From positions 33,215 through 97,214 of the forward strand of contig JBAZFK010000002.1 of assembly GCA_041653395.1 (NCBI GenBank): a stretch of 64,000 nucleotides of DNA, written 5' to 3'. The position numbers and the translations under genes are program-made. Under the pieces are notes generated by a model, which saw nothing but the letters and a program-made list of their open reading frames with translations, was not told the DNA's origin and searched no databases. The stretch comes from Candidatus Nanoarchaeia archaeon. Lineage in GTDB: Archaea; Nanobdellota; Nanobdellia; Tiddalikarchaeales; Tiddalikarchaeaceae. Positions 7,782 to 57,751 of this stretch are shown one piece after another. Each line of letters opens with the position of its first letter. Positions within the stretch are counted from its first letter, which is position 1.

Positions 7782-8156
7782 TTATTTTATTTTATCTGAA
7801 AAATCAAGTTGATAATCAGGAATGCCTAAAGATAATCCATACTTAATGACATTATTATACTCATTTTTAGTTCTATTAATTTTGAAGACTTTATTTTTAA
7901 AAATAATAAAATGAATTAAGTCATTTTTGAAATCACTATACCAGTTGTGCTCATAATCTAATGACTCGCTTAATTTTTTAGCAACTAAATCAGCAAATTT
8001 TTCTTTAACAAGTATTGTGTGCAGAGTCCACTTTTTAATCCAAGGAGTCTTGTGCTCACTAGTAACTTTTTCAACTTTAGTGTCAATAATTTTAATTAAT
8101 TTAAGGACTCCTTTATTATCTAAGCTTTCTTCAATAATTACTCCAATAAAATCCAT
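7782..8156 (-). CDS. hypothetical protein
   Basis: 124-aa ORF immediately downstream of radA, 2-nt gap. Confidence 0.4.
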   Translation of the reverse strand: MDFIGVIIEESLDNKGVLKLIKIIDTKVEKVTSEHKTPWIKKWTLHTILVKEKFADLVAKKLSESLDYEHNWYSDFKNDLIHFIIFKNKVFKINRTKNEYNNVIKYGLSLGIPDYQLDFSDKIK

Positions 8157-9313: not shown

Positions 9314-10432
9314 ATGAGTACTTTAGAAAAATTAAGAATCTTAGGCGAGGCTGGAAAATATGATATTTGCGCAAGCAGCTCAAGCAAAAGAGCAACATCC
9401 ACCACAGGAATAGGCAATCCATCAAGCCCAGGAATATGCAATAGTTTCACTCCGGACGGCAGGTGCATAACATTATTTAAAGTTTTATTTTCCAATTCTT
9501 GCACGCATGACTGCAAATATTGCCAAAATAGCAATAATTGCAATAAGCAAAAAGCCATATTTGAACCTGAAGAATTAGCAAAAATTTTCATGAACTTATA
9601 TGTTAAAAATTATGTTGAAGGATTTTTTTTAAGCAGCGGAATAATAAAAAATGCAGATTATACAATGGAATTAATGCTAGATTGCGTCAGATTACTTCGA
9701 AGTAAATACTTATACAATGGATATATTCATCTTAAAATTATTCCAGGAGCAAGCAGGGAAAAAATCAAGCAAGCAGCAGAATTAGCAGATAGATTAAGCC
9801 TTAACCTAGAAGTTCCAAACAAATCAAGCATGAGAGAGATAAGCACTGTAAAAGACTACAAATTAGACATAATCAAAAGGTTCAGATACATGAAAAAATT
9901 AGACTTGCCCAGTGGCTCAACAACACAATTTGTTGTAGGAAGCGCTGATGACACTGATTATAGAATAATGAAAAGGGTTAACTGGATGTATAGCAATATG
10001 AACCTAAAAAGAGCATATTTTAGCGCTTTTATCCCAATAAAAAACACAGCTTTTGAAAATAAGATAAAAGAGAAATTAGACAGGGAGCATAGGCTTTACC
10101 AGACTGATTTCTTGATGAGAAAATATAATATTGGATTCTCAGAGATAAAGCAAATTTTTGAAGATGAAATGATGCCTCATGAGGACCCTAAAATATTGCT
10201 AGCAAATAAGCTTTTAAAAAAAGCTGTCAATATAAACTCAGACAATTATGATTTACTCTTGAAAGTTCCAGGTATTGGTCCAATCAGCGCAAAAAGAATT
10301 ATTGATTGCAGAAAAAATGCAAAAATAAAAAGCATTGATGCTTTGAAGCAATTAGGGGTTATTGTAAAAAGAGCAAGAAACTATATTGAAATCAATAATA
10401 ATTACCAGTCAAAAATAGGTGAATATAATTGA
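9314..10432 (+). CDS. radical SAM protein with C-terminal HhH, putative DNA modification/repair radical-SAM family (TIGR03916-like)
   Basis: CTHDCKYC (Cx3Cx2C) cluster. C-terminal VPGIGPISAKRII helix-hairpin-helix. Paired with a DUF4130-like gene. Confidence 0.65.
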   Translation: MSTLEKLRILGEAGKYDICASSSSKRATSTTGIGNPSSPGICNSFTPDGRCITLFKVLFSNSCTHDCKYCQNSNNCNKQKAIFEPEELAKIFMNLYVKNYVEGFFLSSGIIKNADYTMELMLDCVRLLRSKYLYNGYIHLKIIPGASREKIKQAAELADRLSLNLEVPNKSSMREISTVKDYKLDIIKRFRYMKKLDLPSGSTTQFVVGSADDTDYRIMKRVNWMYSNMNLKRAYFSAFIPIKNTAFENKIKEKLDREHRLYQTDFLMRKYNIGFSEIKQIFEDEMMPHEDPKILLANKLLKKAVNINSDNYDLLLKVPGIGPISAKRIIDCRKNAKIKSIDALKQLGVIVKRARNYIEINNNYQSKIGEYN

Positions 10433-11421: not shown

Positions 11422-11574
11422 TTAAGGCTTAAATACTCCGCAATGACATTTTTTATTAAAAACGAACTCATAGCAAGGGCATTTAGTGTTTAATTTGCAT
11501 AAACAATTTCCATCATTGTCAAAAACATCTTTTAACAGCTTGAAATTAATCTTAAAACCTTCATACTCTTCCAT
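11422..11574 (-). CDS. small Cys-rich protein (three CxC pairs), putative metal-binding
   Basis: 50-aa ORF not in the track. Start overlaps the stop of the upstream methyltransferase gene (TAATG). CLC..CPC..CHC. Confidence 0.3.
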   Translation of the reverse strand: MEEYEGFKINFKLLKDVFDNDGNCLCKLNTKCPCYEFVFNKKCHCGVFKP

Positions 11575-12317
11575 TAATCAGTCACCTCTATTTTCCTAAA
11601 GCACATAATGAATCCAGTATGGCCAAGCATGTCAAACTTTGGATGGCACACCAAATCATTAACATCCCACTCCCTTAATATTAGCTCAAAAACATGGTCT
11701 AATTTAAATTTTTTTGTTGAGAACTCTTTTTGGCTAAGAGTCAATTGAGTTGTATTAGGCACATAAACAGTCAATCTTGAGCCGTTCTTTAACAAGCTAC
11801 TAATTTTGTCAGAGTAATCCCAAGGGTTAGGCAAGTCAATATTTATAGCATCAAATAACTTCCTTGAAGAATACTCCTTTAACTCTTTGTTAATGACTTC
11901 AATGTTTTCAAAACCGAACAAACTAGCATTATTTTTTATTATATTGCAAAACTTTTCATTCTTTTCAACGCTAACAATCCTGCCTTTTGCTCCAACGATG
12001 TTGGCAAAAAAGCAGCTAATAGAGCCGCTGCCTCCTCCACAGTCAAGAACCCTGAAACCTTGCATTAAACCTAGCTGCGATGCAATGAATCCTGCATCTT
12101 TTAAAGTGATTATTTGAGGGCCTCTTTTAATGCTGAACAATAAATCCTTAAAATCAGGTTTTTTAATCAAAAAACTTTTGCCTTTATGAGTCCTAATTAA
12201 ACCTTCATTAATGGAATTATATTCCTCCTTTTTTATCAATCCATAATTAATGTTTAAATCCTGATCAATCTTATCAGAATAGATTTTCTTGTACTCATCA
12301 TTCAATAAAAGTTTCAT
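11574..12317 (-). CDS. class I SAM-dependent methyltransferase, TrmI (tRNA m1A) family-like
   Basis: GFRVLDCGGGSGSIS motif I. Size and layout resemble TrmI/Gcd14. Confidence 0.55.
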   Translation of the reverse strand: MKLLLNDEYKKIYSDKIDQDLNINYGLIKKEEYNSINEGLIRTHKGKSFLIKKPDFKDLLFSIKRGPQIITLKDAGFIASQLGLMQGFRVLDCGGGSGSISCFFANIVGAKGRIVSVEKNEKFCNIIKNNASLFGFENIEVINKELKEYSSRKLFDAINIDLPNPWDYSDKISSLLKNGSRLTVYVPNTTQLTLSQKEFSTKKFKLDHVFELILREWDVNDLVCHPKFDMLGHTGFIMCFRKIEVTD

Positions 12318-32174: not shown

Positions 32175-32321
32175 GAGTCCGTGGCTCAGCTTGGATAGAG
32201 CGACTGCCTCCTAAAAAATTGTGATGATGAGAAGGTCAACTGAAAATTATGTGATGAGACTGACCTACCCTGAGTTTTTGGAGATAGCAGTAGGTCGGGG
32301 GTTCAAATCCCCTCGGGCTCG
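32175..32321 (+). tRNA. tRNA-Arg (anticodon CCT) with a ~72-nt intron at the canonical 37/38 position (exon 1 about 32175-32213, exon 2 about 32286-32321)
   Basis: acceptor gagtccg/cgggctc, D-arm gctc/gagc, anticodon stem actgc...gcagt split by the intron, loop cuCCUaa, T-arm ggggg ttcaaat cccct. Confidence 0.8.
32221..32273 (+). ncRNA. box C/D sRNA embedded in the tRNA-Arg(CCT) intron
   Basis: C gtgatga (32221-27), 12-nt guide, D' ctga (32240-43), 7-nt spacer, C' gtgatga (32251-57), 12-nt guide, D ctga (32270-73). Confidence 0.6.
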
Positions 32322-32344
32322 CTTATTAATATTATAAGTTTTAG

Positions 32345-32400
32345 TTTCCCCCAGGGCTTTGCCTTGCAAAGGGCTGGTTCTAAATCCCCTCGGGCTCGCT
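32345..32400 (+). other. tRNA-trailer element A: conserved hairpin with GG/GG internal loop plus a degenerate copy of the tRNA 3' T-arm/acceptor strand
   Basis: tttcccc CAGggctttgc ctt gcaaagggCTGg ttctaaatcccctcgggctcgct. One of three copies in the window. Confidence 0.6.
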
Positions 32401-32591
32401 TATTATTAAATTAATTCATTAACATAAGTTGTCAATATTTGAGTTGTCTTGAAGGATTTTCCAAAGTACTGCTCGATATTAAAAGCTGCATATTTTTGCA
32501 TAATTTATTTATAATGATTTATTTTTAAAAAACTATATGACATCTTTTGAGTAGTGAAATATTTAAATTGCAGCCAATTAATTATTAAACA

Positions 32592-33100: not shown

Positions 33101-33748
33101 CTAATAATTAGCTAATAGCAATGAAGCACTAAATGGCAGTGTGAAATCGTCTATTTTGCTAGGGCTTATTAGTTCAACAACTGAAATTATGAAGCTTATT
33201 GCCAAAGCTTTCATTGAAAATCCGAAAAATGATGATATTATCATTAAGTTTGATATTAGCATTGCAAGCGAGCCTTCAAAAGTCCTGTTATTTCCCAATA
33301 TTGAAAAAACGTTTTTTCCGTAGTTTTTACCTATAATTGCAGCCAAAGGGTCCGATACTATTAATACTAATGCGCTTATTAATGGAACAATATTGTCATT
33401 GGTTACTATTGAAAAAAGTATCAGGTAAGTTATGGAGACTCCGTAAAGCGCTGGGCCTTGCAGGTAATTTTTTTCAAACTCATCATTCATTGAATAAAAC
33501 ACATGTTTTAGCAAAGGGGTTGATTTTCTTGACAAAAAAACTATCAATGTGATTATTGATGAGGCAATAAAATAAAGCCATTTATTGCTAGCAAAAAACA
33601 ATGAGATTATGCTTAATCCTGAGAAGAAATGAATAATCATTCTTGCAGTTCTTTTCCCTATCTTCTTTTTTTTGTACAAAACTATCGGGACTGCATAAAC
33701 AATTGCTATATATATTGAAACTAATAATATAATGATTAAGTCATTCAT
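33101..33748 (-). CDS. CdsA-family CTP transferase membrane protein (third paralog)
   Basis: SDPLAAIIGKNYGKNVFSILGNNRTFEGS motif. Multi-TM. Confidence 0.5.
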   Translation of the reverse strand: MNDLIIILLVSIYIAIVYAVPIVLYKKKKIGKRTARMIIHFFSGLSIISLFFASNKWLYFIASSIITLIVFLSRKSTPLLKHVFYSMNDEFEKNYLQGPALYGVSITYLILFSIVTNDNIVPLISALVLIVSDPLAAIIGKNYGKNVFSILGNNRTFEGSLAMLISNLMIISSFFGFSMKALAISFIISVVELISPSKIDDFTLPFSASLLLANY

Positions 33749-33812
33749 AGGTTATTCTGTGAACTTAGGGAATTATAAAATTTTTTAATGAGCAATTGTT
33801 CAATTATTTAAT

Positions 33813-33886
33813 GGGCTTATAGTATAACTTGGATAGTACAGTGGCCTTCGGAGCCGAAAATCAGGGTTCAAATCCCTGTAAGCCCT
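33813..33886 (+). tRNA. tRNA-Arg (anticodon TCG)
   Basis: acceptor gggctta/taagccc, anticodon arm gtggc cTTCGga gccga (one mismatch), T-arm caggg ttcaaat ccctg. Confidence 0.75.
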
Positions 33887-33907
33887 TTAGAGTTTTTTTT
33901 GTTTAAA

Positions 33908-33961
33908 TTTCCCCTGGGGCTTTGCTTACAGCAAAGGGCCAGTTCTAAATCCCTGTAAGCC
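33908..33961 (+). other. tRNA-trailer element B (same family as 32345..32400)
   Basis: tttcccc TGGggctttgc ttaca gcaaagggCCAg ttctaaatccctgtaagcc. The outer stem covaries with elements A and C. Confidence 0.6.
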
Positions 33962-34022
33962 TTCAGACTCCAAGATTTTTTAGAAAAATTATTTAAATAA
34001 AAAGATTGAATAGATTACTATA

Positions 34023-34496
34023 ATGGGCAAAAAAAATGATGAATGCAAGGATTGCATTGAAAACATGAAAAAGTTTGAAGAGCTGAAAAAGGATTACGTT
34101 TTGCTTAATAATCAATTAAGGCTGCTTCAGGCAGATTTTGACAACTACAAAAAAAGGGTTATTAAAGAAAAAATTGACTTGTCTGATTTGTCAAAAACAG
34201 AATTAATACTTGATTTATTGCCTGATTTGGAGGCTTTCAAAAAAGCCAGCGAGTTAAGCAAGGAAGAGGGTTTTAAATTATTATATAAAAATTTCATGAA
34301 AGTGCTGGCAAAAGCAGGGCTAAAAGAGATTAAATGCGTTGGCGAAAAATTTGACATTAATTTGCATGAGGCAATGCTTTCTGTTAGGGATGAAACCAAA
34401 GAGGATGGAATAATAATTGATGAAATAGAAAAAGGCTACACTTTCAATGATAAATTAATCAAGCCAAGCAAAGTGATTGTGAATAAGAAACAATAA
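34023..34496 (+). CDS. grpE: nucleotide exchange factor GrpE
   Basis: LRLLQADFDNYKKR, LLPDLEAF, FD...HEAM, C-terminal beta domain. Confidence 0.85.
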   Translation: MGKKNDECKDCIENMKKFEELKKDYVLLNNQLRLLQADFDNYKKRVIKEKIDLSDLSKTELILDLLPDLEAFKKASELSKEEGFKLLYKNFMKVLAKAGLKEIKCVGEKFDINLHEAMLSVRDETKEDGIIIDEIEKGYTFNDKLIKPSKVIVNKKQ

Positions 34497-34528
34497 CTTT
34501 ATTAATATCACTCCTTTATGTTATTTTT

Positions 34529-40499: not shown

Positions 40500-40550
40500 T
40501 TGGAAGAAAGGTGTAACACCCTAGTCTTTGCTTTATAAATAACTTTGGAG
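40487..40550 (+). repeat. att-like direct repeat copy 1: tRNA-Arg(GCG) 3' end plus 51 nt of trailer
   Basis: 64 nt nearly identical to 43029..43092 (1 mismatch). The first 14 nt are also at 49753..49766. Confidence 0.6.
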
Positions 40551-40600
40551 ATAAATTAATTTAAATTATAAATATATTGTAACTAAAGAAGTATTAATTA

Positions 40601-40681
40601 AATACTAATATCTACTAAAATGTACTAAATTAGTAGATACTTTTATAAATACTAATTTGCATTAAATTAGTAGATAACTAT
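40601..40681 (+). promoter_or_regulatory. Fic promoter/operator: perfect TATA box tttataaata flanked by palindromes (t)cTACTAAaTTAGTAga
   Basis: Palindrome copies at about 40621-40639 and 40661-40679. Related copy downstream of the gene at 42020-42044. Confidence 0.45.
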
Positions 40682-41990
40682 GAATATTCCTGAATTTCCA
40701 AAAGAAAAATTAGTATCTCCCAATGAAATAATGCCTTTTCTAAGTGATAAAAAATTAATGGAAATTATAAAAAAATTTAATGAAGAATACATCCCTTTTG
40801 AAAAACTAAAAAGAAAAGTTTTGCCTAAGGAAGTAAATGTTGAGCAATTGTGGACTATAATGAAAATCTTCAGAAGAAGCAATTATAAAACTGTTAAAAT
40901 AAAAAGTTATGAATTTAATTATTCCTTAAATGATGATTTTCAAAGCAAAATTCATAATTTAGACATGAGCTGCGGAGGAAAATCATTAAACATTAATTTT
41001 CCGCATATAAGCAGCCAAGAGAAAGAAAGATACATTATTAGCTCTTTAATGGAGGAAGCCATTGCATCAAGTCAGCTTGAAGGAGCATCAACAACCAGGA
41101 AAGTGGCAAAAGAAATGCTTAGAAGCAACGCAAAACCAAAATCTTATTCAGATAAAATGATACTCAATAATTATAATACTATGCAAGAAATAGTCAAAAT
41201 GAAGGATGAAAATCTCACAATGAATATGATTTTAAAAATTCATAAATTAATAACTAAAGGCACATTAGAAAGTGAAAAAATGGAAGGTTCTTTTAGGGAT
41301 ACCGATGAAATTGTGGTGGGTGACCCTATAAATATTGAAATAATTTATCATCATCCGCCTAAAAATAGTGAAATAAAAGAGCTTATTGAAGTATTATGTT
41401 ATTTTATAAACAATGATTCAGAATTTATTCATCCGATAATAAAAGCAATAATGCTTCATTTTTTTATAGGTTATATACATCCTTTTTATGACGGAAATGG
41501 AAGAACAGCAAGGGCCTTATTTTATTGGTATATCATAAAGAAAGGATATTGGTTATTTGAATACATGTCTGTTTCAAGGATAATATTAAGGTCAAAAGTT
41601 GATTATGGTATGGCTTATTTATATACTGAACATGATGAAAATGACTTGAATTATTTTATAAAATATAATATTGACTGCATAGAAGAAGCTGTAAAAAATA
41701 CGGAAGAATATATATTAAAAAAACAAAGAGAACAAAGAGAACTTCTTAATATAATACAGCAAACAAAGGGGCTGAATTTAAGGCAAGCTGAAATAATTAA
41801 GGATGCAGCAAAAAATAAAAAACCAATAATAATAAATGAAGTAATAAACACTTTTGGAGTAACTTATCAGACAGCAAGAACTGATCTTTTAGGTTTAGAA
41901 AAAAAAGGATTTTTATCAAAAATTAAGATACAAAAAATGTTCATTTTTAAACTAAATGAAGATAAATTTAAAGAAATAATAAATAAATAG
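40680..41990 (+). CDS. Fic/Doc family protein (AMPylase), class II with N-terminal inhibitory helix motif, C-terminal wHTH
   Basis: Fic motif HPFYDGNGRTARAL. Inhibitory S-x-x-x-E-G (SSQLEG) motif about 120 aa upstream. C-terminal HTH-like segment. Confidence 0.85.
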   Translation: MNIPEFPKEKLVSPNEIMPFLSDKKLMEIIKKFNEEYIPFEKLKRKVLPKEVNVEQLWTIMKIFRRSNYKTVKIKSYEFNYSLNDDFQSKIHNLDMSCGGKSLNINFPHISSQEKERYIISSLMEEAIASSQLEGASTTRKVAKEMLRSNAKPKSYSDKMILNNYNTMQEIVKMKDENLTMNMILKIHKLITKGTLESEKMEGSFRDTDEIVVGDPINIEIIYHHPPKNSEIKELIEVLCYFINNDSEFIHPIIKAIMLHFFIGYIHPFYDGNGRTARALFYWYIIKKGYWLFEYMSVSRIILRSKVDYGMAYLYTEHDENDLNYFIKYNIDCIEEAVKNTEEYILKKQREQRELLNIIQQTKGLNLRQAEIIKDAAKNKKPIIINEVINTFGVTYQTARTDLLGLEKKGFLSKIKIQKMFIFKLNEDKFKEIINK

Positions 41991-42148
41991 TTTATAAGCC
42001 TCATTCAAATACTAATATTTACTAATATCTACTAAATTAGTATTTAAGCATCATTTCTCTTTTCATGTGCCCTAAGGCTTTGAAAAGCAGTTTTTCTTTA
42101 TGGTTTATCTTTGTAGCAATTATGAAAGACTCTCGGGAACTAGCATCT

Positions 42149-42880
42149 TTATTGTGAAGATTTTTTTATAAGAGATTTTAAAAAAGAATATTCTTTTTGT
42201 AATTCACTAATATAATCCTTATTTTCAAAGGGAATCACACTCTCAATTATTGTTGGAATATTAGGGACTAAATGAGAAATCATCTCTTTTTGCTGTGTTA
42301 TATAAATAGGATAATGCTGTTGTTCATCTTTGCCATGTTTTTTATAACCGCTAACATGAATTTCTTTTATTGAATTATTATAATTTTTTAACAAATTATT
42401 AGATAAATTCATATTTTTATCAACAATATAATCATGAGTTAAGTCAAGGACTAGCTTATGATTATTTTCTATTATCTTAATAATTTCATCTAATTTATAA
42501 CCAAAACCATCTTTTCTTCCAATATTTTCAAATAAAAATGGCAGGTCATAATCTTTGAATATGTTCCAATCATCCACAATATCAGAATGAATTATAATAT
42601 TATCAAATTTGAAAATCTTATTGTATTTAACAATAGTATTTAATAATTTTCTTGTTTCAACATTATTTGCATATCTTAATTCTTCAGATGAATGCAATGA
42701 AACATAATTAAACTTTTTAAGCTTATTAATATCTAAAATATTTAATAATTCAATTCTGTAATTAAAAAGTGCGCATAATTCAATGGCATTGCAACCCGTT
42801 GAACTTATTGCATCAACCGCTTCATTGGACAAAGGTTCCAAATGTTTATATAAACTTCCAGTGCTAAAACCCAAAATCAT
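42149..42880 (-). CDS. sugar phosphate isomerase/epimerase (xylose isomerase-like TIM barrel) family protein
   Basis: N-terminus MILGFSTGSL...AIEL matches the family start. Length 243 aa. Confidence 0.45.
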   Translation of the reverse strand: MILGFSTGSLYKHLEPLSNEAVDAISSTGCNAIELCALFNYRIELLNILDINKLKKFNYVSLHSSEELRYANNVETRKLLNTIVKYNKIFKFDNIIIHSDIVDDWNIFKDYDLPFLFENIGRKDGFGYKLDEIIKIIENNHKLVLDLTHDYIVDKNMNLSNNLLKNYNNSIKEIHVSGYKKHGKDEQQHYPIYITQQKEMISHLVPNIPTIIESVIPFENKDYISELQKEYSFLKSLIKKSSQ

Positions 42881-43010
42881 TTAAAATAAGAATAAATCGG
42901 TATTTAAATATTTATTTAATATTGCTTTAGGGAGTAATAATAATTATTTAAATAAGGAGTTATAAATAATAAAATTGTTTTTATTTATATTTAATAAAAA
43001 ATAGGGGCAG

Positions 43011-43092
43011 TTAACCTTTTCTTTGTCGCCCGGCAGGGGCATTGGAAGAAAGGTGTAACGCCCTAGTCTTTGCTTTATAAATAACTTTGGAG
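43011..43092 (+). repeat. att-like direct repeat copy 2, with element-side arm ttaaccttttct
   Basis: cccggcaggggcattggaagaaaggtgtaacGccctagtctttgctttataaataactttggag. Arm motif shared with copy 3. Confidence 0.6.
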
Positions 43093-43470
43093 GTATTTAA
43101 ATTTATGAAAGACGCATGGGAATTGCACCATTACTATGAAGACTTAGAAAGAAAAGTAAAAAGCAGTTATTATTCAAAATATTATTTAACAATGTTTGGA
43201 GTAGTAAACGAATTCATTTTTTTATTAAGTAAATTTGTTGCACTTATTAATAAAGAAAATTTAAAGGGCTGGTTTAGTTCTGTTAAAAAATGCTCATCAA
43301 TGAAAAAAACAATAAAAGAGTTTTTACCTTTAACTGAATTAATATTAAATAGTAGAACTCCTGAAATTATGTTTGATTCATGCGAAAAATTATGGAAAAA
43401 CTGCAATGAATTAGCTAATAATAAACAAGTAGAAATAAAAAATGTAAATAATTTAAAAGAAATAATTTAA
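43087..43470 (+). CDS. hypothetical protein
   Basis: 127-aa ORF starting inside att copy 2. Confidence 0.35.
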   Translation: MEVFKFMKDAWELHHYYEDLERKVKSSYYSKYYLTMFGVVNEFIFLLSKFVALINKENLKGWFSSVKKCSSMKKTIKEFLPLTELILNSRTPEIMFDSCEKLWKNCNELANNKQVEIKNVNNLKEII

Positions 43471-43519
43471 TTAAAACACAATAAATAGTTTTTTAAAAAG
43501 AATTTTTTCAAGTTAATTT

Positions 43520-44800
43520 ATGGGAAAACATAAAACTTTGGATTTTAAGTATTATACTTTAGATAATGGTTTAATAGTTGCTTATAAAAAAACAGGGAAT
43601 AATACTGTTTCAATAGACTTAAATGTTGGAAGCGGTTCATTAACTGAAAAAGATAATGAAAAAGGATTATGCCATTTGTTGGAGCATTGTTTATATAATG
43701 GAGCAACTGCAAAATATGATGTCTCCCAATTAAGTGAAATTAAGTCAAATTTTGGATACACTAATGCTTTTACTGCAGTTAAACCAATATGTTTTTCAGG
43801 AGAAATGCTAAAAGAAGATGCTGAAATTTATTTAGATTTTATATCTCAGGTCGCTTTTAATTCAAGATTTGATGAATCTACTTTAAATCAGGAGAAAGAA
43901 AGAGTTTTAAGGGAGATTTCAGACAGAAAAATAAACATTTCATCTGAGCATATTCAATTATTTGATAAGGCTTTTTTTGGAGATTTGAAGAATGCTTACA
44001 ATGTTTTAGGAGATGAAGAAACTGTAAAAAATGCTTCAGTTATTGATTTAAACAATATATATGGTAGAAATTTTAATGCAAGCAATATGGGTTTGTTTCT
44101 TTATGGAGGATTGCCAGATAATATAGAAAATCTTATTAAAACCTATTTTGGAGGATATCCTAAAGGAAAAAGATTTATGTTTAATACCCAAAAATATACA
44201 CCTAATCCTACTGAATCATTTCTTTATTTTAAAGTGCCTTATTTTTTAAATAAAGAAAATCCTAAATTAAGCAGCGCTGAACTAAATTTAAGAGTTATTG
44301 CCCCAAATTCAGATGAAAAATATTTCTATGAAATGCAAATACTAAATGATATACTTGGAAATTCTTATAATTGCCTTCTTTTTAATGAAATAAGCAAAAA
44401 AAAAGGATTGGCATATAACATAAATTCAAAATTTATTGAGTCCCAATATAATTTTATAAGCATATCTGGCATGGTTTCTGCAATGAAATATGAAGAAGCA
44501 ACCTCTTCAATATTTGATATATTTTCAAAGTTAAGAAGTGAATTAATACCTGAAGATTTATTAATAAAAAATATAAAGAGCAACAAGTTTCAGCTTTCAA
44601 AAATTTACGAATCAAACCAAGGCAATATTAATATGATGAAGGCAAATATTTATGATAATTTTGACATAAATGATGTATTTGATATTATGAAAAATATTAA
44701 TTCAGAAAGCATAAGGGAAGCCGCCAATATTTATTTGCCTGAAAATATTAATGACAAAAAGTATACCTTAATGATAAGAAGCCCATTTGATGAAAAATAA
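43520..44800 (+). CDS. M16-family (pitrilysin/insulinase-like) zinc peptidase-like protein
   Basis: Inverted zinc motif HLLEH near the N-terminus and a downstream Glu region. Two-domain size. Confidence 0.55.
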   Translation: MGKHKTLDFKYYTLDNGLIVAYKKTGNNTVSIDLNVGSGSLTEKDNEKGLCHLLEHCLYNGATAKYDVSQLSEIKSNFGYTNAFTAVKPICFSGEMLKEDAEIYLDFISQVAFNSRFDESTLNQEKERVLREISDRKINISSEHIQLFDKAFFGDLKNAYNVLGDEETVKNASVIDLNNIYGRNFNASNMGLFLYGGLPDNIENLIKTYFGGYPKGKRFMFNTQKYTPNPTESFLYFKVPYFLNKENPKLSSAELNLRVIAPNSDEKYFYEMQILNDILGNSYNCLLFNEISKKKGLAYNINSKFIESQYNFISISGMVSAMKYEEATSSIFDIFSKLRSELIPEDLLIKNIKSNKFQLSKIYESNQGNINMMKANIYDNFDINDVFDIMKNINSESIREAANIYLPENINDKKYTLMIRSPFDEK

Positions 44801-44825
44801 AATTTTTATTTTAAAAAAACTTATT

Positions 44826-45080
44826 TTATAACTTTTTTTCTTGCATTTTTTCTAAAAATATTTGCCCTTCTCTTTCTATATCATAATCATTAATTCCATC
44901 ACTAAATTTTCTATATTCGATAAAATGTATATTTTCTAATTTTTTTAAAATGTTTTTTAATTCAATTTCATTAAATTTTGATTTATTTAATAATTCATTA
45001 AAAGTAATACCTTTGCATGCTTTTTTATTAATAATTTTTAAAATTCTTATTTCTTTAACATTTAACTTTAAAAGTTCCAT
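44826..45080 (-). CDS. small hypothetical protein, possibly wHTH
   Basis: 84-aa ORF. Confidence 0.3.
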   Translation of the reverse strand: MELLKLNVKEIRILKIINKKACKGITFNELLNKSKFNEIELKNILKKLENIHFIEYRKFSDGINDYDIEREGQIFLEKMQEKKL

Positions 45081-45101
45081 AAAATTATGATTACTTCAAT
45101 A

Positions 45102-45380
45102 TTAATATTTCTTTCTTTTCATCTTAAATTCTTCATTTTTTCTTTTTACATATTCTATTATTTCAATAGGCACTCTTTTGTCTATGTATCTGATGATTTC
45201 AGGCCTGACTTTGCCGTTTACTCTTATGCTCATTGCTACATAGTAGTAGACTCCGAGTTTTCCGTTTTTTAGTGTGACTATTTTCTTTTTTATATACATA
45301 AAAAATATTGGGATTAAAGAAATATTTAAGCAACTATTTTTTGCAAATAAAGAATAAGAATGTTTCTTTAAAATTGTCAA
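45102..45380 (-). CDS. small basic hypothetical protein
   Basis: 92-aa ORF overlapping the 3' end of the methyltransferase gene. Uncertain. Confidence 0.25.
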   Translation of the reverse strand: MTILKKHSYSLFAKNSCLNISLIPIFFMYIKKKIVTLKNGKLGVYYYVAMSIRVNGKVRPEIIRYIDKRVPIEIIEYVKRKNEEFKMKRKKY

Positions 45381-46074
45381 AAAATGAATATTTTTTATTG
45401 TGTATTATTTTATTTTTTGGAATTAGGGTTATTTCACTAAATCCTGCTTTTTTTAATTTATTAATGTAATAATTAGGCATTGCAAAATGAGCATATAAAT
45501 CTTTGCCGTAATCATTCCAGTGCAAGTCACCAAAATATTTCTCGTTATTTTTTACTCCAAATATTTTTTTTAAGTAAAATGAAAAAAGCTTTTTAATCCA
45601 AATATTCCAATATTTAAACCCTTTACCTGGATATAAAAAAGTGTGGGTTGTGAAGACAAAATATCCTCCTTTTTTCAATGATTTTGACACATTATTTAAA
45701 GACTTTTGAATATCATCTGGAGAGATATGTTCAATACCATTAAAAGAGAATAAAGCATTATCAAAAAAGTTTTCAGGATAATCTATTTCAGTTAAACTAA
45801 TTGTTTCAAATTCAATATTTATTTTATTCTTTTTAGCATTATTCTTAGCAATTTTAATCATTGAAGGAGTAATATCAATTGCATAAACTTTATTGCCTTT
45901 TTTTGCCAATGGAATTGAGGTTCTTCCTCCACCGCAACCAATATCAAGTATTTTGGACCCTTTTTTAAATAATTTATTAAATAATTTCTCTTCTTCGGGC
46001 CATAAACCTATTTTAGAATAAATATCTTGTGCCTTCTTCGTACTATAACCTTCAGTGATTTCCTTTGAGTCCAT
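45334..46074 (-). CDS. class I SAM-dependent methyltransferase (small-molecule/UbiE-like)
   Basis: ILDIGCGGGRTSIPLAKKG motif I, acidic loop, FSFNGIEH. Confidence 0.7.
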   Translation of the reverse strand: MDSKEITEGYSTKKAQDIYSKIGLWPEEEKLFNKLFKKGSKILDIGCGGGRTSIPLAKKGNKVYAIDITPSMIKIAKNNAKKNKINIEFETISLTEIDYPENFFDNALFSFNGIEHISPDDIQKSLNNVSKSLKKGGYFVFTTHTFLYPGKGFKYWNIWIKKLFSFYLKKIFGVKNNEKYFGDLHWNDYGKDLYAHFAMPNYYINKLKKAGFSEITLIPKNKIIHNKKYSFFDNFKETFLFFICKK

Positions 46075-46110
46075 ATTAGTTATTTAATTAAAAGTAATTT
46101 ATAACTGTTT

Positions 46111-46251
46111 CTTTGTATTCTTATTGTTCTAAATTGCGGATTTACGGATTTGCTAAATTGAAGGCTTGCTGTTTAATTTTGTTCGCTTTTAACAAATTCG
46201 CGACTCGCGAATTTCTTATTTTTGCATAAAATAAACAATCAAGCCTTACTG
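46111..46251. repeat. about 140-bp nested long inverted repeat, MITE-like or large hairpin
   Basis: Arms ttgcggattt / aaatccgcaa and aaggcttg / caagcctt, plus a central perfect palindrome aaattcgcgaCtcgcgaattt (46174-46194). Confidence 0.5.
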
Positions 46252-46362
46252 CTAAGAAATCCGCAAATACGAGAAAATAAAGTGTAAGATTTGTAAAAAA
46301 TTAATTAATAAATATTTTCCATAGCATTCTATACTCCATAGGATGTTGGATAATATTTTTAA

Positions 46363-46539
46363 TTATTCATTCTTTTTTTCAATGCTCATTATTTCTTCAG
46401 GAGCATTTGTGAATACTATTATACTATTGCATTTTGAGCATTGCATCACATAAGTTGCACATATCAATTTAGCATTTGAGGTTAATGCTTTGTTGCTTAT
46501 ATTTATTTCATTTCCGCAATTGTTGCATTTTATTGGCAT
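46363..46539 (-). CDS. small zinc-ribbon protein
   Basis: 58-aa ORF not in the track. CNNC ... CSKC. 7 nt downstream of the 46530..46940 gene. Confidence 0.35.
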   Translation of the reverse strand: MPIKCNNCGNEINISNKALTSNAKLICATYVMQCSKCNSIIVFTNAPEEIMSIEKKNE

Positions 46540-46940
46540 GATTTTTCACCTGAACAATATTGTACTTCTTTTTTTCTGTAAGGAATAGTTATAACTGATT
46601 TTATTACTGTTTCTTTTTTTGTTTCTTCATTAAATCTTGCCATATTAAGAGAATAATCAAGATTTATTAAAAATTTTACAAATTCATTTTTAGTATTTAA
46701 CTTATAAAGTATCATGTTTCCTTTTTTTTCACTAATTAATACTTTTTGTTTTACTAAATCATCACATATTTGTTGTAATGTTGTTCTTGATACTTTAGTT
46801 TCGTTGTTAATTTCTACTTTTGAGTAGCTTCCAAAAAGGTTTTCTATAAAGAAATCAATAACTTTAATTTTTGGAGATTCTCCTAAATATTCTAATAATA
46901 AACTTGCCATAATATCAACCTTAACTAATAAATAAGACAA
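46530..46940 (-). CDS. winged-helix DNA-binding protein (putative transcriptional regulator)
   Basis: N-terminal wHTH-like segment. Start possibly at an internal Met. Confidence 0.4.
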   Translation of the reverse strand: MSYLLVKVDIMASLLLEYLGESPKIKVIDFFIENLFGSYSKVEINNETKVSRTTLQQICDDLVKQKVLISEKKGNMILYKLNTKNEFVKFLINLDYSLNMARFNEETKKETVIKSVITIPYRKKEVQYCSGEKSCQ

Positions 46941-46966
46941 AGGTATTTATAAAAGTATGGTCATAT

Positions 46967-47296
46967 TTGTCCAATTATTGGACAATGTTTTTAAATAATC
47001 TCTTTTTTAAAAAACATATGGAATTATCAAAAGATGACCTTGAAGCGCAGATAGTGTGGAAATTATTTCACAATGGAAAATTTGGAAAAGGCCATTTTAC
47101 TGAAGAAACTATTCTGAAAGGTATTCCCAAGAATATGTGGGGAGATGCAAGAGCAACAATAAAAGACTTAATAAAAAAAGATATTATTCAATACAAAGAC
47201 CATGATCATGGAGGAGCATATTCACTAAACAATCAAAACAAAATTTTATGGAAAGATATAATTGACAAGAAAATGAAAGAATTGGGAATAATTTAA
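46967..47296 (+). CDS. small hypothetical protein
   Basis: 109-aa ORF. Confidence 0.4.
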   Translation: MSNYWTMFLNNLFFKKHMELSKDDLEAQIVWKLFHNGKFGKGHFTEETILKGIPKNMWGDARATIKDLIKKDIIQYKDHDHGGAYSLNNQNKILWKDIIDKKMKELGII

Positions 47297-47366
47297 TACC
47301 TCATTTATATATTTCTTTGTTCCTAATCTTTTCATGCTTTCAGTTAATAATGAGCAATTGACTGAA

Positions 47367-48317
47367 TTATTGGATTTTTTCAAAAGTTTCTACGAATTTA
47401 TCAGGACCTGATTTTATTAATTCTTTTACTTTTTCATTTCCCAATTTTTCGCTTATATCTTTCCACATAACATACCCTACATGATATATTGGGCCGTTTC
47501 CATTGTAAAGAACATTATTAAGATTCTTTGAAAAATTAGAGCTAGGATCATTTAATGCTGATTCAAGGTTTATAAAAAGATTTTTAGCGCTCTCTTTTGA
47601 CATTATGTAGTCGCTTTTTTTAATTTTATCAACTATTTCGAAATTTGTTAATTCATCCTTGATTAATCCAAGAATTATCTCTTGCCATAATTTTTTTTCT
47701 TTAAGAACCTCATAATATGCATCGTAATGCTCTGATTCTATGAATGTTGCCAAGCCTTCGCCAAAAAGCGTTTCTTTAAAATGATTTTCTGATTTAGTGT
47801 ATCCAATCTGATCCAAGTATAAATGGCTTGCTTCATGTGAAACCATGGATTCTAATGATTTTAAAGCCTGCTCTATTCCTTTCTTTTTTAATTCCTGCAT
47901 AGTTATTTCTTTAGGTTTAGGCATTTTCATTATTTGATGGTATAAGTGTGTGAAGTTTATTCCAAAAGAATTATCTCCAATTATTCTTGCAGAAGTTCCT
48001 ATATCTGCTAAGAATACTATTTCAGGAGATTTATAGTTCATATTAGGCATTGCTGATTTAGCAGTGTTTAATCCTTTAATTATTGCTTTTTCATATTTGC
48101 TTTCCAATATGTCTCTAAAAATGTATCCTTGAATCATTCTTTTTTCAGGGTTTAATTCTGATAAATATTTATAAAATTCGCAGTCAACAGTTTTATCTAA
48201 AAAACCGATTCTGCCTTCAGATTTAAGCTTTTTTTCAAGAACTGGCAAAACATTTGAAATATCTGAATGGTAAGCCTCTAAAATGCTGCTTATTTCATCT
48301 TTTATTACAAATTCCAT
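47367..48317 (-). CDS. HExxH-motif protein, putative zinc-dependent peptidase
   Basis: MVSHEASHLYLD plus downstream GEGLATFIESE. Possible third ligand. Confidence 0.45.
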   Translation of the reverse strand: MEFVIKDEISSILEAYHSDISNVLPVLEKKLKSEGRIGFLDKTVDCEFYKYLSELNPEKRMIQGYIFRDILESKYEKAIIKGLNTAKSAMPNMNYKSPEIVFLADIGTSARIIGDNSFGINFTHLYHQIMKMPKPKEITMQELKKKGIEQALKSLESMVSHEASHLYLDQIGYTKSENHFKETLFGEGLATFIESEHYDAYYEVLKEKKLWQEIILGLIKDELTNFEIVDKIKKSDYIMSKESAKNLFINLESALNDPSSNFSKNLNNVLYNGNGPIYHVGYVMWKDISEKLGNEKVKELIKSGPDKFVETFEKIQ

Positions 48318-48567
48318 AATAATTAACAGGAAAAAATCTCTTTAAATATGTTTCTTAATTTTTAAAATAATAAAAAAAAGTTTATAAATAGATTATTTTC
48401 ATTTAGTTTATTATGGATAATGATATTGTTTCTAAAAAAATAAAGAATGCTCTTTTAAAGCTAGGGATTAATGAAGAGGATAAGATTGAAAATATATTAA
48501 AAGATTATAATTCTTGCGCAAATAAAAAATTTTTTAGGGATATTCAAAGGATTCTTATATTGGCGCT

Positions 48568-48981
48568 TTGATTTATAATTATTATAAACCTTTAATTAAT
48601 ATGGAATCAGTGTCAAGTGCAGTTAATTGTAGCGTTTTTTATTTAAAAAATGCATATTCCAGGTATTTAAGGGAAGAATATGTAATTCGAAAACCTAGAA
48701 ATAATTCTCTGGATGAAGTAATAAATTTTTACTCAAAAGATTTTTCAATCAATAAAGAATCTTTTATAAAAAAGCTTGAAAGTTTCACTAAGCCAAAATA
48801 TGAATTGGCAGTAAAAAGCATAAATAATGGCAATAAAGGAGCTATAGCTGCCTCCATTTATTTATTCACTGAAGACAAAATTCATGATAACCAAACAAAA
48901 ATATCCAGGCTTGTAGGAGTCACGGAAGTAACATTAAAAAATTGGGTGAAAAAAATAAAACCTAAATATTATAAAAGATAA
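48568..48981 (+). CDS. HTH DNA-binding protein
   Basis: C-terminal ISRLVGVTEVTLKNWVKK helix-turn-helix. Start may be an internal Met. Confidence 0.4.
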   Translation: MIYNYYKPLINMESVSSAVNCSVFYLKNAYSRYLREEYVIRKPRNNSLDEVINFYSKDFSINKESFIKKLESFTKPKYELAVKSINNGNKGAIAASIYLFTEDKIHDNQTKISRLVGVTEVTLKNWVKKIKPKYYKR

Positions 48982-49148
48982 TTCTAATAAAAAAAATACT
49001 AGATTATTACCTTATGAATGAAAAATTAAAGCAATTTTTCCAACCCTGGGAACTAAAACTAATAGAGATAATAGAAGAAGCTAAGAAAGAGAAGACAAAA
49101 AAGATAAAATTGAAATTAAAAATACATTATTGGAATAAATTAAATTAA

Positions 49149-49586
49149 TTATTTTTTAGCTAAGCTTTCACTTAAAGTTTCGTTTGGAAAGTATATTAAT
49201 ACTTTTTCGGTTTTGAATTCAATCATTTCATATTCTTTTCTAATTATTACTTTTAAATTATTATATTTTTTTTTGAAAAATTCATAATTATTCACTTTAA
49301 AATCTGGTGCACCCCTTTGTGTGCGTGTTTCATCATAAATTCTTATTTTTATTAAATTTAAAGGTCCATAAATAGTTTTAATTGGAATATTTAACCTAAA
49401 TATTTCTCCAGTTTTAACAGAGTCTATTAATTTACTAACTTTTTTTATTTCTTCTAGTAGTTTTTTTCTTTCAACTTCATCTTTTGGAAAAATATCAACA
49501 AAATCAATTAATAATTTTTCGGATATTACATTTTTAATTGCATTATTTGTTTCTTTAACAATTTCATTAACAATCTCATTTATCAT
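49149..49586 (-). CDS. hypothetical protein
   Basis: 145-aa ORF. Confidence 0.4.
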   Translation of the reverse strand: MINEIVNEIVKETNNAIKNVISEKLLIDFVDIFPKDEVERKKLLEEIKKVSKLIDSVKTGEIFRLNIPIKTIYGPLNLIKIRIYDETRTQRGAPDFKVNNYEFFKKKYNNLKVIIRKEYEMIEFKTEKVLIYFPNETLSESLAKK

Positions 49587-49734
49587 TCTTTAAACTATTA
49601 ATAGTTACTATAAAATTTTTTCTTTTTAACAAAAAATAAGTATTCTATTAATAGAAAATTCGGGAAAAGTTTATATAAAATCTCTGCCTCACTTAATCTT
49701 TGTAAATAAAAAAACGAGCAAAAATTAAGGGTGA

Positions 49735-49766
49735 TTGACCTTTTCTCAGACTCCCGGCAGGGGCAT
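49735..49766 (+). repeat. att-like repeat copy 3: element-side arm plus 14-nt tRNA-Arg(GCG) 3' core
   Basis: ttgaccttttctcagactcccggcaggggcat vs copy 2 ttaaccttttctttgtcgcccggcaggggcat. Confidence 0.55.
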
Positions 49767-52793: not shown

Positions 52794-54092
52794 TTATTCT
52801 TTTTTCTTTTTTTGCTCTTTCTTCTTGGAATAAACCCTGAAATGATAATTTATTGGGTTCTTTATAGTTTCGCAAATGCTGTCTTTTTTGCACACTCCCA
52901 AATCCTGATAATACATTAAGTTGTCGCAATTAGGAGCTAAATATTCAGTTGATTTAAGGTTCCAATTAATTTGAGTTTTAACATATGATTCTTTTAAGGG
53001 CTCAGAGTTTTTGCTGTTCCATTCATTAATTATTTGCTCAATCTCTTCCTTTGAATAATTAGCGCTTTTGAAATAATTAATAAGTATAAACAATGCTCTT
53101 TTTTTGCCGTCTTCTAAGCCTTTCAATATTATCTTAATGCAAGGAGGGTACTTCTCAGGAGGTATTTTTTCATAATTTTTTTCAAAAACCTTTCTTTTGA
53201 AAACAGGCTCTGAAATTTTTTCTTCAATTTTTTTGGAAAAATCAAAGGCTTGCATGAATAATTCATTTGCTTCATTGGCAAAAGCTTTATCTCTTTGTAT
53301 AAAAGGCAGTATTTTTTTCACATTCTTAGGCTTAGCTTTTTCAGTTTCAAACCCCTCTATTTCATCTTTTTTTATTGGAACAGAAACCAGCCCTTTTTTT
53401 TCATTAATGCTGTAAGGCATTCTTATCAAATGCCTTGAAGATAAAGCTGCTGCATCAATTTCAAGAACAGAGTATGGATTAAATTCCTCCCCTTCAAATA
53501 ACTCTTTTTCGGATTTCGAAGTTTTGTCCATTATTTGCTCTACTGAATTGAGCTCAAGAATCATTTCTGACAGCTTTTTTCGCACAAAGGCTCTCAGATA
53601 AGACGCTATTTTTTGCGCAGCTTCAGGGAAAAGCTTTTCAACACCTAAGCCGTTCACTGTTTTTGGAAAGCATTCATAAGGAACTGCTATATGAAACCCT
53701 GAGCCTCCGCTGTATTTTACTGCATAATTTTTTATGCCATGATATTCTAATGCGTGGCATAATAGCTTTGCGCAAATTTTTGCATAATCAAACACTTTTG
53801 TGTCAATATCTATTATTAAGTCCCACCCTATTCTTAGCTCATCCATTTCAATCTTCGTGTTTGTTGCATTAAGGCTCATTGGATTTTTCCATCTTTCAAC
53901 GCTCATATGAAAGCTTACTGCACCATTCCTGACTTGGTCAATTATTTCCTGCTTATACATTAGAATTGACGGCCTCTGCCCGAAGAATCCTTTAAAAAAC
54001 ATTGTTGCAACTTCCCTGTCCTTTCCCTGGCTGATAAGCTCTGCCAAGATGTCATCATTATTGTAATATTTAAGCAGTTCGGCAATATTCAT
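52794..54092 (-). CDS. priS: DNA primase small subunit PriS (archaeo-eukaryotic primase)
   Basis: AEP motif I LIIDIDTK, motif II YSGGSGFHIAVP, PriS-like N-terminus, C-terminal Cys cluster. Confidence 0.7.
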   Translation of the reverse strand: MNIAELLKYYNNDDILAELISQGKDREVATMFFKGFFGQRPSILMYKQEIIDQVRNGAVSFHMSVERWKNPMSLNATNTKIEMDELRIGWDLIIDIDTKVFDYAKICAKLLCHALEYHGIKNYAVKYSGGSGFHIAVPYECFPKTVNGLGVEKLFPEAAQKIASYLRAFVRKKLSEMILELNSVEQIMDKTSKSEKELFEGEEFNPYSVLEIDAAALSSRHLIRMPYSINEKKGLVSVPIKKDEIEGFETEKAKPKNVKKILPFIQRDKAFANEANELFMQAFDFSKKIEEKISEPVFKRKVFEKNYEKIPPEKYPPCIKIILKGLEDGKKRALFILINYFKSANYSKEEIEQIINEWNSKNSEPLKESYVKTQINWNLKSTEYLAPNCDNLMYYQDLGVCKKDSICETIKNPINYHFRVYSKKKEQKKKKE

Positions 54093-57472: not shown

Positions 57473-57528
57473 TTAAATAGATTAACAAAAATAAATTTTC
57501 CCCAATCATTTAATAAAAAAATTGATTT

Positions 57529-57574
57529 GAGTCTGCCCGGATGAGCCCTTTGCTTCGCAAAGCCCTCGGGGAAA
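57529..57574 (-). other. tRNA-trailer element C (same family as 32345 and 33908), downstream of tRNA-Pro on the minus strand
   Basis: tRNA-sense: tttcccc GAGggctttgc gaa gcaaagggCTC atccgggcagactc. Outer stem gag/ctc covaries. Confidence 0.6.
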
Positions 57575-57590
57575 CTCAATTAAATTTATT

Positions 57591-57664
57591 TGAGTCTGCC
57601 CGGATTTGAACCGGGGCCACAAGGTCCCAAACCTCGAATCCTAACCAAGCTAGACTACAGACCC
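57591..57664 (-). tRNA. tRNA-Pro (anticodon TGG)
   Basis: Reverse complement gives acceptor gggtctg/cagactc, anticodon arm cgagg uuUGGga ccuug, T-arm ccggt ttcaaat ccggg. Confidence 0.8.
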
Positions 57665-57751
57665 AAATAATATTTTATATCAATTTTAGTGCTTTTAAAT
57701 ATTACTTTTTTATGATAATAAAAAAGATTAAAAAACAAGCAGTTTATATAA

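Follow-up and report, generated by a model that had tools for sequence, protein, structure and literature searches.

The window (the whole 64,000-nt stretch of DNA analysed) contains a complete and normal tRNA-Arg(TCG) gene, followed on its 3' side by a short structured element, designated copy B. The gene and the parts of the element were as follows.

33813-33886, + strand: tRNA-Arg(TCG), complete and normal, target gene of copy B (ARAGORN; Rfam tRNA, 57.4 bits)
33870-33892, + strand: direct repeat 1 of copy B (AAATCCCTGTAAGCCCTTTAGAG), read from the sequence
33893-33907, + strand: AT-rich filler (TTTTTTTTGTTTAAA), containing T8
33908-33946, + strand: conserved core, TTTCCCC + hairpin + TTCT (pattern search; covariance model, 69.1 bits)
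33908-33914, + strand: TTTCCCC
33914-33942, + strand: hairpin, an imperfect palindrome (CTGG / GG / CTTTGC, loop TTACA, GCAAAG / GG / CCAG)
33943-33946, + strand: TTCT, a T-loop-like linker
33947-33968, + strand: direct repeat 2 (AAATCCCTGTAAGCC-TTCAGAC), from 33947, the copied tRNA 3' part and trailer

Reading of positions 33400-34500 bore out the sequence of copy B as described in an earlier note, including a T-rich spacer of about 21 nt (33887-33907) with the T8 inside, which separates the tRNA gene from the core. By its sequence, this T8 is likely an archaeal terminator. The hairpin was the minimum-energy DNA fold (-8.9 kcal/mol) and was followed by GTTCTAAAT. The loop TTACA was present as claimed, but its length of 5 nt is not fixed, because one more T-A pair can close and leave 3 nt.

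Repeat 1 consisted of the T-loop AAAT, the 3' strands of the T-stem and the acceptor stem, the discriminator and 6 nt of the trailer. The two repeats shared an 18-mer match with two mismatches, and repeat 2 differed from repeat 1 by one deletion and two substitutions. The tail matched the local tRNA-Arg(TCG) and not Arg(CCT), as had been noted. Its description as a duplicate of the tRNA 3' strand was correct in that the strand was copied, but it was incomplete: the copied T-loop carried one extra T (TTCTAAAT versus TTCAAAT in the tRNA), the copied acceptor strand was short of one C, and the duplicate extended into the trailer, to about 33968 (TAAGCCC+TTTAGAG versus TAAGCC+TTCAGAC).

The pattern GGCTTTGC-N3-7-GCAAAGGG matched three times in the window, versus 0.00 matches expected from 100 shuffles, which excluded chance. 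With the prefix TTTCCCC added to the pattern, exactly the same three sites were matched. These were the copies after Arg-CCT (A), Arg-TCG (B) and Pro-TGG (P), and the features of the other two were as follows.

32175-32321, + strand: tRNA-Arg(CCT), with an intron of 70-odd nt, target of copy A (Rfam tRNA, 48.1 bits)
32329-32405, + strand: copy A, whole (pattern; covariance model)
32329-32344, + strand: filler of copy A
32345-32381, + strand: core of copy A (TTTCCCC, CCAG/GG/CTTTGC, loop CTT, GCAAAG/GG/CTGG, TTCT)
32351-32377, + strand: outer stem pair of copy A (CCAG/CTGG)
32382-32405, + strand: direct repeat 2 of copy A (AAATCCCCTCGGGCTCGCTTATTA), identical to 32305-32328
57590-57665, - strand: tRNA-Pro(TGG), target of copy P
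57519-57589, - strand: copy P, whole (pattern; covariance model)
57575-57589, - strand: trailer and filler of copy P
57543-57574, - strand: core of copy P (TTTCCCC, GAG/GG/CTTTGC, loop GAA, GCAAAG/GG/CTC, A)
57519-57542, - strand: direct repeat 2 of copy P (ATCCGGGCAGACTCAAATCAATTT)

At copy A, AAATCCCCTCGGGCTCG+CTTATTA was present twice, with 24/24 nucleotides identical and the trailer included. The duplicate of copy P also entered the trailer (...CAGACTCAA+ATAAATTT versus ATCAATTT). The continuation of the duplicate past the tRNA into the trailer in A, B and P indicated that a segment of DNA had been duplicated, with no mimicry of a tRNA strand.

Three of the five tRNA genes in the window thus carried the element. 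The other two, tRNA-Arg(TCT) and tRNA-Arg(GCG), were without it by sequence reading and by the covariance model. The intron-containing tRNA-Arg(CCT) was missed by ARAGORN and detected by Rfam. At tRNA-Arg(GCG), a 15-nt copy of the tRNA 3' end was found 9.2 kb downstream, bounding an island; the DNA inside this island was missing from the relative L021, and the island end bore no such hairpin.

An exact-pattern scan of 185,579 species genomes (one genome per species) gave matches in only two 'Candidatus Nanoarchaeia' MAGs, at seven loci. A metagenome scan gave nine true loci and one GC-rich chance match inside a gene. Fourteen distinct copies were aligned and served as the basis of a covariance model (R1), which found 26 full-length matches (E<=1e-9) in 190 kb of DNA. 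On manual reading, each of the 26 either adjoined the 3' end of a tRNA gene or belonged to an array situated at the end of a contig. R1 added three array copies truncated at contig ends, and a further one located behind an intron-containing tRNA-Ser(GCT). Diverged copies were present in L023 and in L019/L020.

Altogether, the number of distinct loci that the database scans and the covariance model gave in related Nanoarchaeia was about 17, and every one lay immediately 3' of a tRNA gene. With the three copies in the window, this upheld the earlier claim of a repeated structured element tied to tRNA 3' ends. Eleven tRNA genes served as targets: Arg-CCT, Arg-TCG, Pro-TGG, Gln-CTG, Gln-TTG, Lys-CTT, Val-TAC, Val-GAC, Ala-TGC, Ser-GCT and Met/Ile-CAT. 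The copies at tRNA-Gln included a tandem array with a period of 82 nt and 2.4 copies. Five contigs (L001, L003, L009, L012 and L017) started or stopped inside a unit or its tRNA, which suggests that the arrays break assemblies.

Two patterns gave no match among the viral contigs of IMG/VR, and no match was found in the phage and plasmid collections INPHARED and PLSDB; an origin from a virus or plasmid was rejected on these results. Rfam 15 at the gathering threshold reported only the tRNAs and no family for the element, so a known RNA family was also rejected. At E<=5 there was no convincing Rfam match to the element, the sole row overlapping copy A being a Helicobacter RNA on the antisense strand (E=1.2), far under its gathering score. 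Literature searches found no description of the element.

The conserved part was about 40 nt long and consisted of (T)TGAG-TTTCCCC, an imperfect palindrome with a GG·GG bubble and the T-loop-like GTTCT. TTTCCCC, the inner stem and the bubble were invariant or nearly so, and TTTCCCC together with the bubble-containing hairpin was present in 13 of the 14 aligned copies. In this alignment, 97.9% of the stem cells were paired, with no G·U pairs, and two pairs of the outer stem varied by compensatory change only (CG/UA/GC and AU/GC/UA). The compensatory double change that the earlier note had seen between copy B (CTGG/CCAG) and copy A (CCAG/CTGG) is real and holds across the 14 distinct copies. The inner stem of L023 showed an extra compensatory change, from C-G to T-A.

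The loops were 3-9 nt long and in part specific to a genome, with AATA in one MAG and TTTA in another. Repeat 1 and the core were separated by an AT-rich filler of 2-50 nt, which was conserved neither in length nor in sequence. Across the copies tested, the single-stranded DNA hairpin was the minimum-energy fold (-6 to -9 kcal/mol). The insert measured 45-85 bp and was non-coding.

The right junction fell where the T-loop passes into the T-stem (AAATCC), a sequence common to all tRNA genes. In most copies the hairpin and GTTCT were joined directly to AAATCC. Variants had one or two other extra bases (TG, C or TT), and a Gln copy retained the tRNA's own G57. Off-register joins, with an extra C at Gln and an extra A at Ser, fell within the shared AAATCC block. 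The GAG-class core was without GTTCT and joined directly at U60 (CTCA to TCCGGG); this class was found only at the two tRNAs with a CCGGG T-stem 3' strand, Pro and Val-GAC.

The left junction lay at a variable point 1-20 nt beyond the tRNA end, in the AT-rich trailer. A direct repeat of 17-36 nt, composed of the tRNA 3' part and the trailer, was present at every copy, and the tRNA gene stayed intact. The duplicate contained 4-20 nt of flank from outside the tRNA; Lys and Val-GAC are examples of such copied local DNA, which amounted to about 20 nt at most.

The core class at a given tRNA did not change between genomes (Arg-TCG with TGG, Arg-CCT with CAG, Pro with GAG). A setting of the outer-stem class by the T-stem or acceptor sequence of the tRNA was considered and rejected: no rule emerged except for GAG, and the array at Val-TAC mixed the CAG and TGG classes within otherwise homologous units.

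A strong oligo-T run (T7-T9) lay between the tRNA and the core in about half of the copies by manual count, copy B included. Copies A and P and those at Ala, Val-GAC, Lys and L023 had none. Co-transcription with the tRNA would thus be neither consistently allowed nor consistently prevented. No promoter-like box before the core was consistent across copies. On the opposite strand, CCAGGGGAAAC may resemble archaeal origin-recognition boxes.

Syntenic loci in relatives were retrieved through GrpE homologues. In L018, L019, L021 and L022, the trailer directly followed tRNA-Arg(CCT), with no element, and the window's flank after repeat 2 of copy A aligned with this trailer in L018. At tRNA-Arg(TCG), the element was present in the window, L004, L019/L020 and L023, and absent from L018, L021, L022 and L024. 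Since orthologous tRNA loci of close relatives are without it, the element is an insertion. Upstream of grpE in the element-free relatives, GTTTCTAAAT was seen, which may be a vestige or a chance occurrence in AT-rich DNA.

At tRNA-Pro, the window and one MAG were 100% identical over 135 nt of upstream DNA plus the tRNA. The fillers of the two Pro copies differed by an 18-nt indel and several substitutions, their loops also differed, and the DNA beyond repeat 2 was unrelated, so that synteny stopped there. Judged from these sequences, this is fast turnover.

The tRNA-Gln(CTG) units bore the trailer of the tRNA-Gln(TTG) locus and not their own flank. Whole units thus move between tRNAs that share their 3' half. 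Decay was also seen: L023 had two substitutions in repeat 2 and an altered core, and L005 had a degenerate core. In L005, a gene with an ORF6N domain was flanked by two copies of the repeat, and the degenerate core lay to its right. In three of four genomes, repeat 2 tracked the lineage-specific T-stem base of the tRNA, which would reflect either recent insertion or homogenisation between the repeats.

A Pfam scan of about 70 ORFs in the window found no transposase, integrase, reverse transcriptase or Cas gene, and no cas, TnpB-like or other effector domains. The products were housekeeping proteins (RadA, SRP54, DnaK/DnaJ/GrpE, primase, HerA, TrmI and others). Twenty ORFs near other copies were likewise ordinary neighbours by Pfam, with no recombinase. 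No Y1 transposase or reverse transcriptase was found in 229 kb of partial genomes by a rough phmmer and motif screen, in which the TnpA queries were approximate. According to a preprint, a genome of Pacearchaeales carries a RAYT-type gene (bioRxiv 10.64898/2026.05.13.725050); enzymes of this kind are thus present in the wider group.

The element was compared with known systems. Integrase-mediated integration at tRNA genes duplicates the tRNA 3' part in the att sites, with a T-loop sublocation (Williams 2002, cited in PMC9897764). As in those elements, the target was the tRNA 3' part, the gene remained intact, the repeat ran from the T-loop region to a little beyond the 3' end, presence was variable and tandem repeats were possible; a direct repeat of this type, from the tRNA 3' part, bounded the insert at every copy (17-36 nt). 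Unlike them, the insert was only 45-85 bp, with no coding sequence, integrase or larger body, and the repeat contained local flank and varied in length. Integrase families also have one or few tRNA att sites, whereas here an identical core was found at 11 tRNA genes.

Y1 HUH transposases process the single-strand hairpins of REP/RAYT elements and of IS200/IS605 ends. Those hairpins resemble the present one in being short imperfect palindromes in which a mismatch is conserved, as is a single-stranded motif at the 5' foot. REP/RAYT elements are also extragenic and clustered, with partly genome-specific variants. REP and IS200/IS605 elements, however, make no target duplication and show no tRNA specificity, whereas a duplication was always present here, and REPs occur in hundreds of copies against a few per genome.

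Yeast mitochondrial GC clusters are GC-rich palindromic clusters in an AT-rich genome. Like these and like MITEs, the element is miniature, non-coding and variably present, a GC-rich hairpin module in a very AT-rich genome. It differs from both in targeting strictly tRNA genes. In MITEs, moreover, terminal inverted repeats directly adjoin a short duplication of fixed length, whereas the duplication here is 17-36 nt and one-sided, and the palindrome arms are flanked by TTTCCCC and GTTCT.

At the level of pattern only, the element resembles target-primed insertion of the non-LTR/SINE type, with one precise junction beside a terminal stem-loop, a variable other end, a target duplication of variable length and one or two extra bases at the junction. 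It differs from non-LTR elements and SINEs in having no A-tail and in that the screens detected no reverse transcriptase, and we know of no case of such insertion in archaea.

Extra motifs tens of bases downstream of many tRNA genes are also known. Dictyostelium tRNA genes have a downstream external B box, a second copy of the T-loop box that serves the Pol III factor TFIIIC, which to our knowledge is absent from archaea. In Methanopyrus kandleri, half of the tRNA genes are followed, at a distance of about 10 bp, by a conserved palindrome that was proposed to be a maturation signal (PMC5217627). The location is similar, but both motifs differ in sequence from the present element, and no duplicated acceptor strand and trailer have been reported there. 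None of the compared families has its full set of defining features in this element.

Several other identities were rejected. The attC sites of integrons have paired R''/R' boxes (RYYYAAC ... GTTRRRY); the 3' side of the element contains GTTCTAA, but in a comparison with this consensus by eye there was no complementary 5' box, and only one case of cargo was seen. A CRISPR array, which has different spacers between its repeats, was dismissed because the 'spacers' are identical tails of the neighbouring tRNA and no cas domains were found. Casposons (PMC5137440) have terminal inverted repeats, a Cas1 gene and a fixed duplication of 14-15 bp; no Cas1 was found, and the duplication varied from 17 to 36 nt.

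A tRNA intron, an alternative 3' exon or a split tRNA did not fit, because the tRNA is complete and T-runs lie inside the would-be intron. The archaeal bulge-helix-bulge has two 3-nt bulges split by a 4-bp helix at the exon borders; the element has opposed 2x2 G·G mismatches instead of staggered bulges, and manual inspection found no helix joining the candidate splice sites. An intrinsic terminator was rejected, since no T-run directly follows the hairpin and a terminator scan reported no site at the element. For copy P, RNAfold suggested that TTTCCCC or the 5' flank pairs in the RNA with the tail duplicate; this pairing was rejected, as it did not hold across copies and showed no covariation.

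Taken together, the duplicated flank, the empty sites and the inconstant co-transcription favour an element that acts at the level of DNA. The absence of G·U pairs, of an Rfam match, of a bulge-helix-bulge and of a consistent promoter box argued against an RNA role. The earlier 'trailer element' interpretation found partial support overall. Its implied form, an RNA imitating the 3' strand of the tRNA, was not supported in view of the duplication of non-tRNA flank, the empty orthologous sites, the decayed copies and the T-run in about half of the copies. What is present looks like a previously undescribed miniature mobile DNA element. On balance, copy B is probably a member of a family of selfish, non-coding DNA insertion modules anchored at the T-loop, and not part of the tRNA transcript. 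The G·G bubble, which is conserved and strand-asymmetric, and the 5' single-stranded motif recall, by analogy, the single-stranded DNA hairpins of REP/RAYT elements, IS200/IS605 ends and attC sites.

Such an insertion module could arise as follows. A new module would be copied from an existing copy, after which synthesis or strand transfer would proceed into the target where T-loop/T-stem homology is shared. The second junction would form at an AT-rich break downstream of the tRNA, where the duplication ends. The process may depend on an enzyme acting in trans and recognising the hairpin in single-stranded form (HUH/Y1-type or similar), or it may need no enzyme and proceed by template switching as breaks at tRNA genes are repaired. 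Once in place, the two repeats would permit loss, tandem amplification and homogenisation.

Some observations count against an insertion module. Duplications of variable length between 17 and 36 nt match no standard DNA transposase, the partly genome-specific loops are not directly explained, and no enzyme for an active mechanism was found in the window, near the copies or in the rough screen of 229 kb. A more specific version, an actively mobilised 'safe-harbour' element, is quite doubtful. Here an enzyme supplied in trans would bind both the hairpin and the universal T-loop sequence of tRNA genes, insert the module and regenerate the gene by the long variable duplication; it could be a reverse transcriptase, with target-primed synthesis on pre-tRNA or an R-loop, or an HUH-type single-strand enzyme. 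If true, the element would be the prokaryotic counterpart of tRNA-targeted SINEs and would follow a new targeting rule.

The constant core class per tRNA and the tracking of the T-stem variant by repeat 2 could instead mean that the copies are old and vertically inherited, with the core under selection for a function. The element would then be an RNA or DNA signal of the tRNA gene, acting in 3'-end maturation, in control of termination or read-through, or in other tRNA-linked regulation. The invariance of the stems and TTTCCCC, while the loops, spacers and flanks diverge, is as expected of such a signal; the copies without a strong T-run would be co-transcribed, and the palindrome of Methanopyrus kandleri offers a proposed precedent (PMC5217627). 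Nevertheless, we regard a functional signal as unlikely. The element is dispensable, being absent from orthologous tRNAs of close relatives and from two of the five tRNA genes in the window, and decayed copies exist. T7-T9 separates the tRNA from the core in about half of the copies, B among them, a signal has no need for duplicated local trailer DNA, and the stems contain no G·U pairs and match nothing in Rfam.

The geometry of the repeats, from the T-loop to just past the 3' end, is typical of tRNA att sites, which raises the question of footprints of classical integrase-driven elements. The hairpin would be the arm or end of a family of integrating plasmids or viruses, the tRNA tail the att core, and the body would have been deleted. 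The 9.2-kb island at tRNA-Arg(GCG) is a true island of this geometry, the ORF6N-domain gene of L005 lies between two repeat copies, and ssrA islands of Dehalococcoides reportedly have tandem repeat arrays at a tRNA-like gene. We nevertheless consider this origin rather improbable: one identical hairpin occurs at at least 11 tRNA specificities, the repeats hold up to about 20 nt of host flank that an incoming element does not carry, and many independent, identical deletions to about 50 bp would be needed. The Pfam scans detected no integrase, either in the window or beside the copies elsewhere, no viral contig, phage or plasmid matched, and the end of the 9.2-kb island has no hairpin. A last reading, to which we give very little credence, takes the unit as a guide-RNA-like repeat-spacer for an RNA-guided enzyme, or as a spare att site that diverts integrating elements from the tRNA. 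It draws on the repeat-like hairpin followed by a target-identical segment, the tandem 'repeat-spacer' arrays, the inserted base in the copied T-loop as a possible mark of self and non-self, and the cargo adjoining repeat 2 in L005. Against it, no cas, TnpB-like or other effector was found, the 'spacers' of an array are all identical and match the adjacent gene, the target would be the cell's own essential tRNA gene, and cargo was seen in one case only.

The units are partial-tRNA repeats and can mislead tRNA annotation. They also mark recombination-prone points, as in the loss of synteny right after the Pro copy. If the insertion-module reading is correct, it would describe a distinct lifestyle for tiny selfish DNA in very small, gene-dense archaeal genomes, in which the landing pad is the one sequence that all tRNA genes share and the damage is mended by duplicating the tail of the gene. 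Should an enzyme be involved, its way of inserting DNA at the T-loop while preserving the gene would be an interesting targeting principle. Through these units, the origin of the disrupted tRNA genes of DPANN archaea could also be tied, in a testable way, to the fragile or recombinogenic character of tRNA genes.

Downstream of the tRNA-Val(TAC) gene in L005, a locus of a related archaeon, the duplicated units formed an array that contained a protein-coding gene:
L005 2848-4119, minus strand: tRNA-Val(TAC) array
L005 3091-3960: ORF6N-domain gene within the array

The order was core, repeat, ORF6N-domain gene, degenerate core and repeat, followed by a core-repeat pair and a last pair whose core belongs to another class. 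Next to the ORF6N gene lay a second copy of the roughly 37 nt that precede the tRNA and take in the start of a divergent gene.

Five contigs of related archaea started or ended inside a unit or its tRNA:
L001 1-114
L003 3361-3469
L009 1-115
L012 1248-1304
L017 2098-2239

The repeats of the element probably break short-read assemblies.

A different hairpin was found after tRNA-Arg(CCT) in L023, from another relative:
L023 5373-5440: small hairpin and tRNA-tail copy

The hairpin (TGCAAAT ... ATTTGCG) differs from that of the element, and the tail of the tRNA recurs behind it (CCCCTCGGGCTCGCTTA). This second tail retained the ancestral T71, whereas pair 2:71 of the tRNA itself has changed to U-A. 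This is a second mini-insertion with the same geometry, either unrelated to the element or very decayed.

In three relatives, one or two small orthologous genes, of which one is Cys-rich, occupied the interval between tRNA-Arg(TCG) and grpE:
L018 9006-9907: small gene(s)
L021 9470-9907: small gene(s)
L023 6849-7766: small gene(s)

A Pfam search of these genes gave no match. The window, L019, L022 and L024 lacked them, and the element and the small genes occurred independently of each other. Upstream of grpE, GTTTCTAAAT-like words, similar to the GTTCTAAAT junction of the element, were present in relatives without the element at this position:
L018 ~9940-9960
L021 ~9940-9960
L023 ~7800-7815

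These words could be the vestige of an old copy of the element, or chance occurrences in AT-rich DNA.

A larger insertion was present at tRNA-Arg(GCG):
window 40501-49766: island region at tRNA-Arg(GCG)

The 3' end of this tRNA (TCCCGGCAGGGGCAT) recurs as a 15-nt copy at 49752-49766, 9.2 kb downstream of the gene, and is followed by a small Zn-finger ORF. In L021, only about 900 bp separate the tRNA from this ORF, so the 9.2 kb in the window is an integrated island with the tRNA as its site. Its products are a Fic/DOC-HTH protein, an M16 peptidase, a methyltransferase and unknown proteins. The search for an integrase was negative, and its end has no hairpin core.

The tRNA-Arg(CCT) gene of the window is interrupted by an intron:
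window 32175-32321: tRNA-Arg(CCT), intron 32208-32283

The intron resembles a box C/D guide RNA, with TGATGA, CTGA, TGATGA and CTGA in that order. Its Rfam match, sR3, was weak (E = 0.003, under the gathering score). The intron and its boxes were kept in L018, L019, L021, L022 and L023.

Three other ORFs in the window were recorded:
2660-4348, plus strand: histidine kinase carrying a CoA-binding domain at its C terminus
52794-54092, minus strand: primase, a single 432-aa protein matching both small and large primase subunit families
11574-12317, minus strand: GCD14/TrmI-type tRNA m1A methyltransferase

The kinase and the primase are both unusual fusions. Because of the methyltransferase, the mature tRNA probably carries a methyl group at the T-loop position adjoining the junction of the element, a point that bears on the element only under an RNA-templated mechanism.
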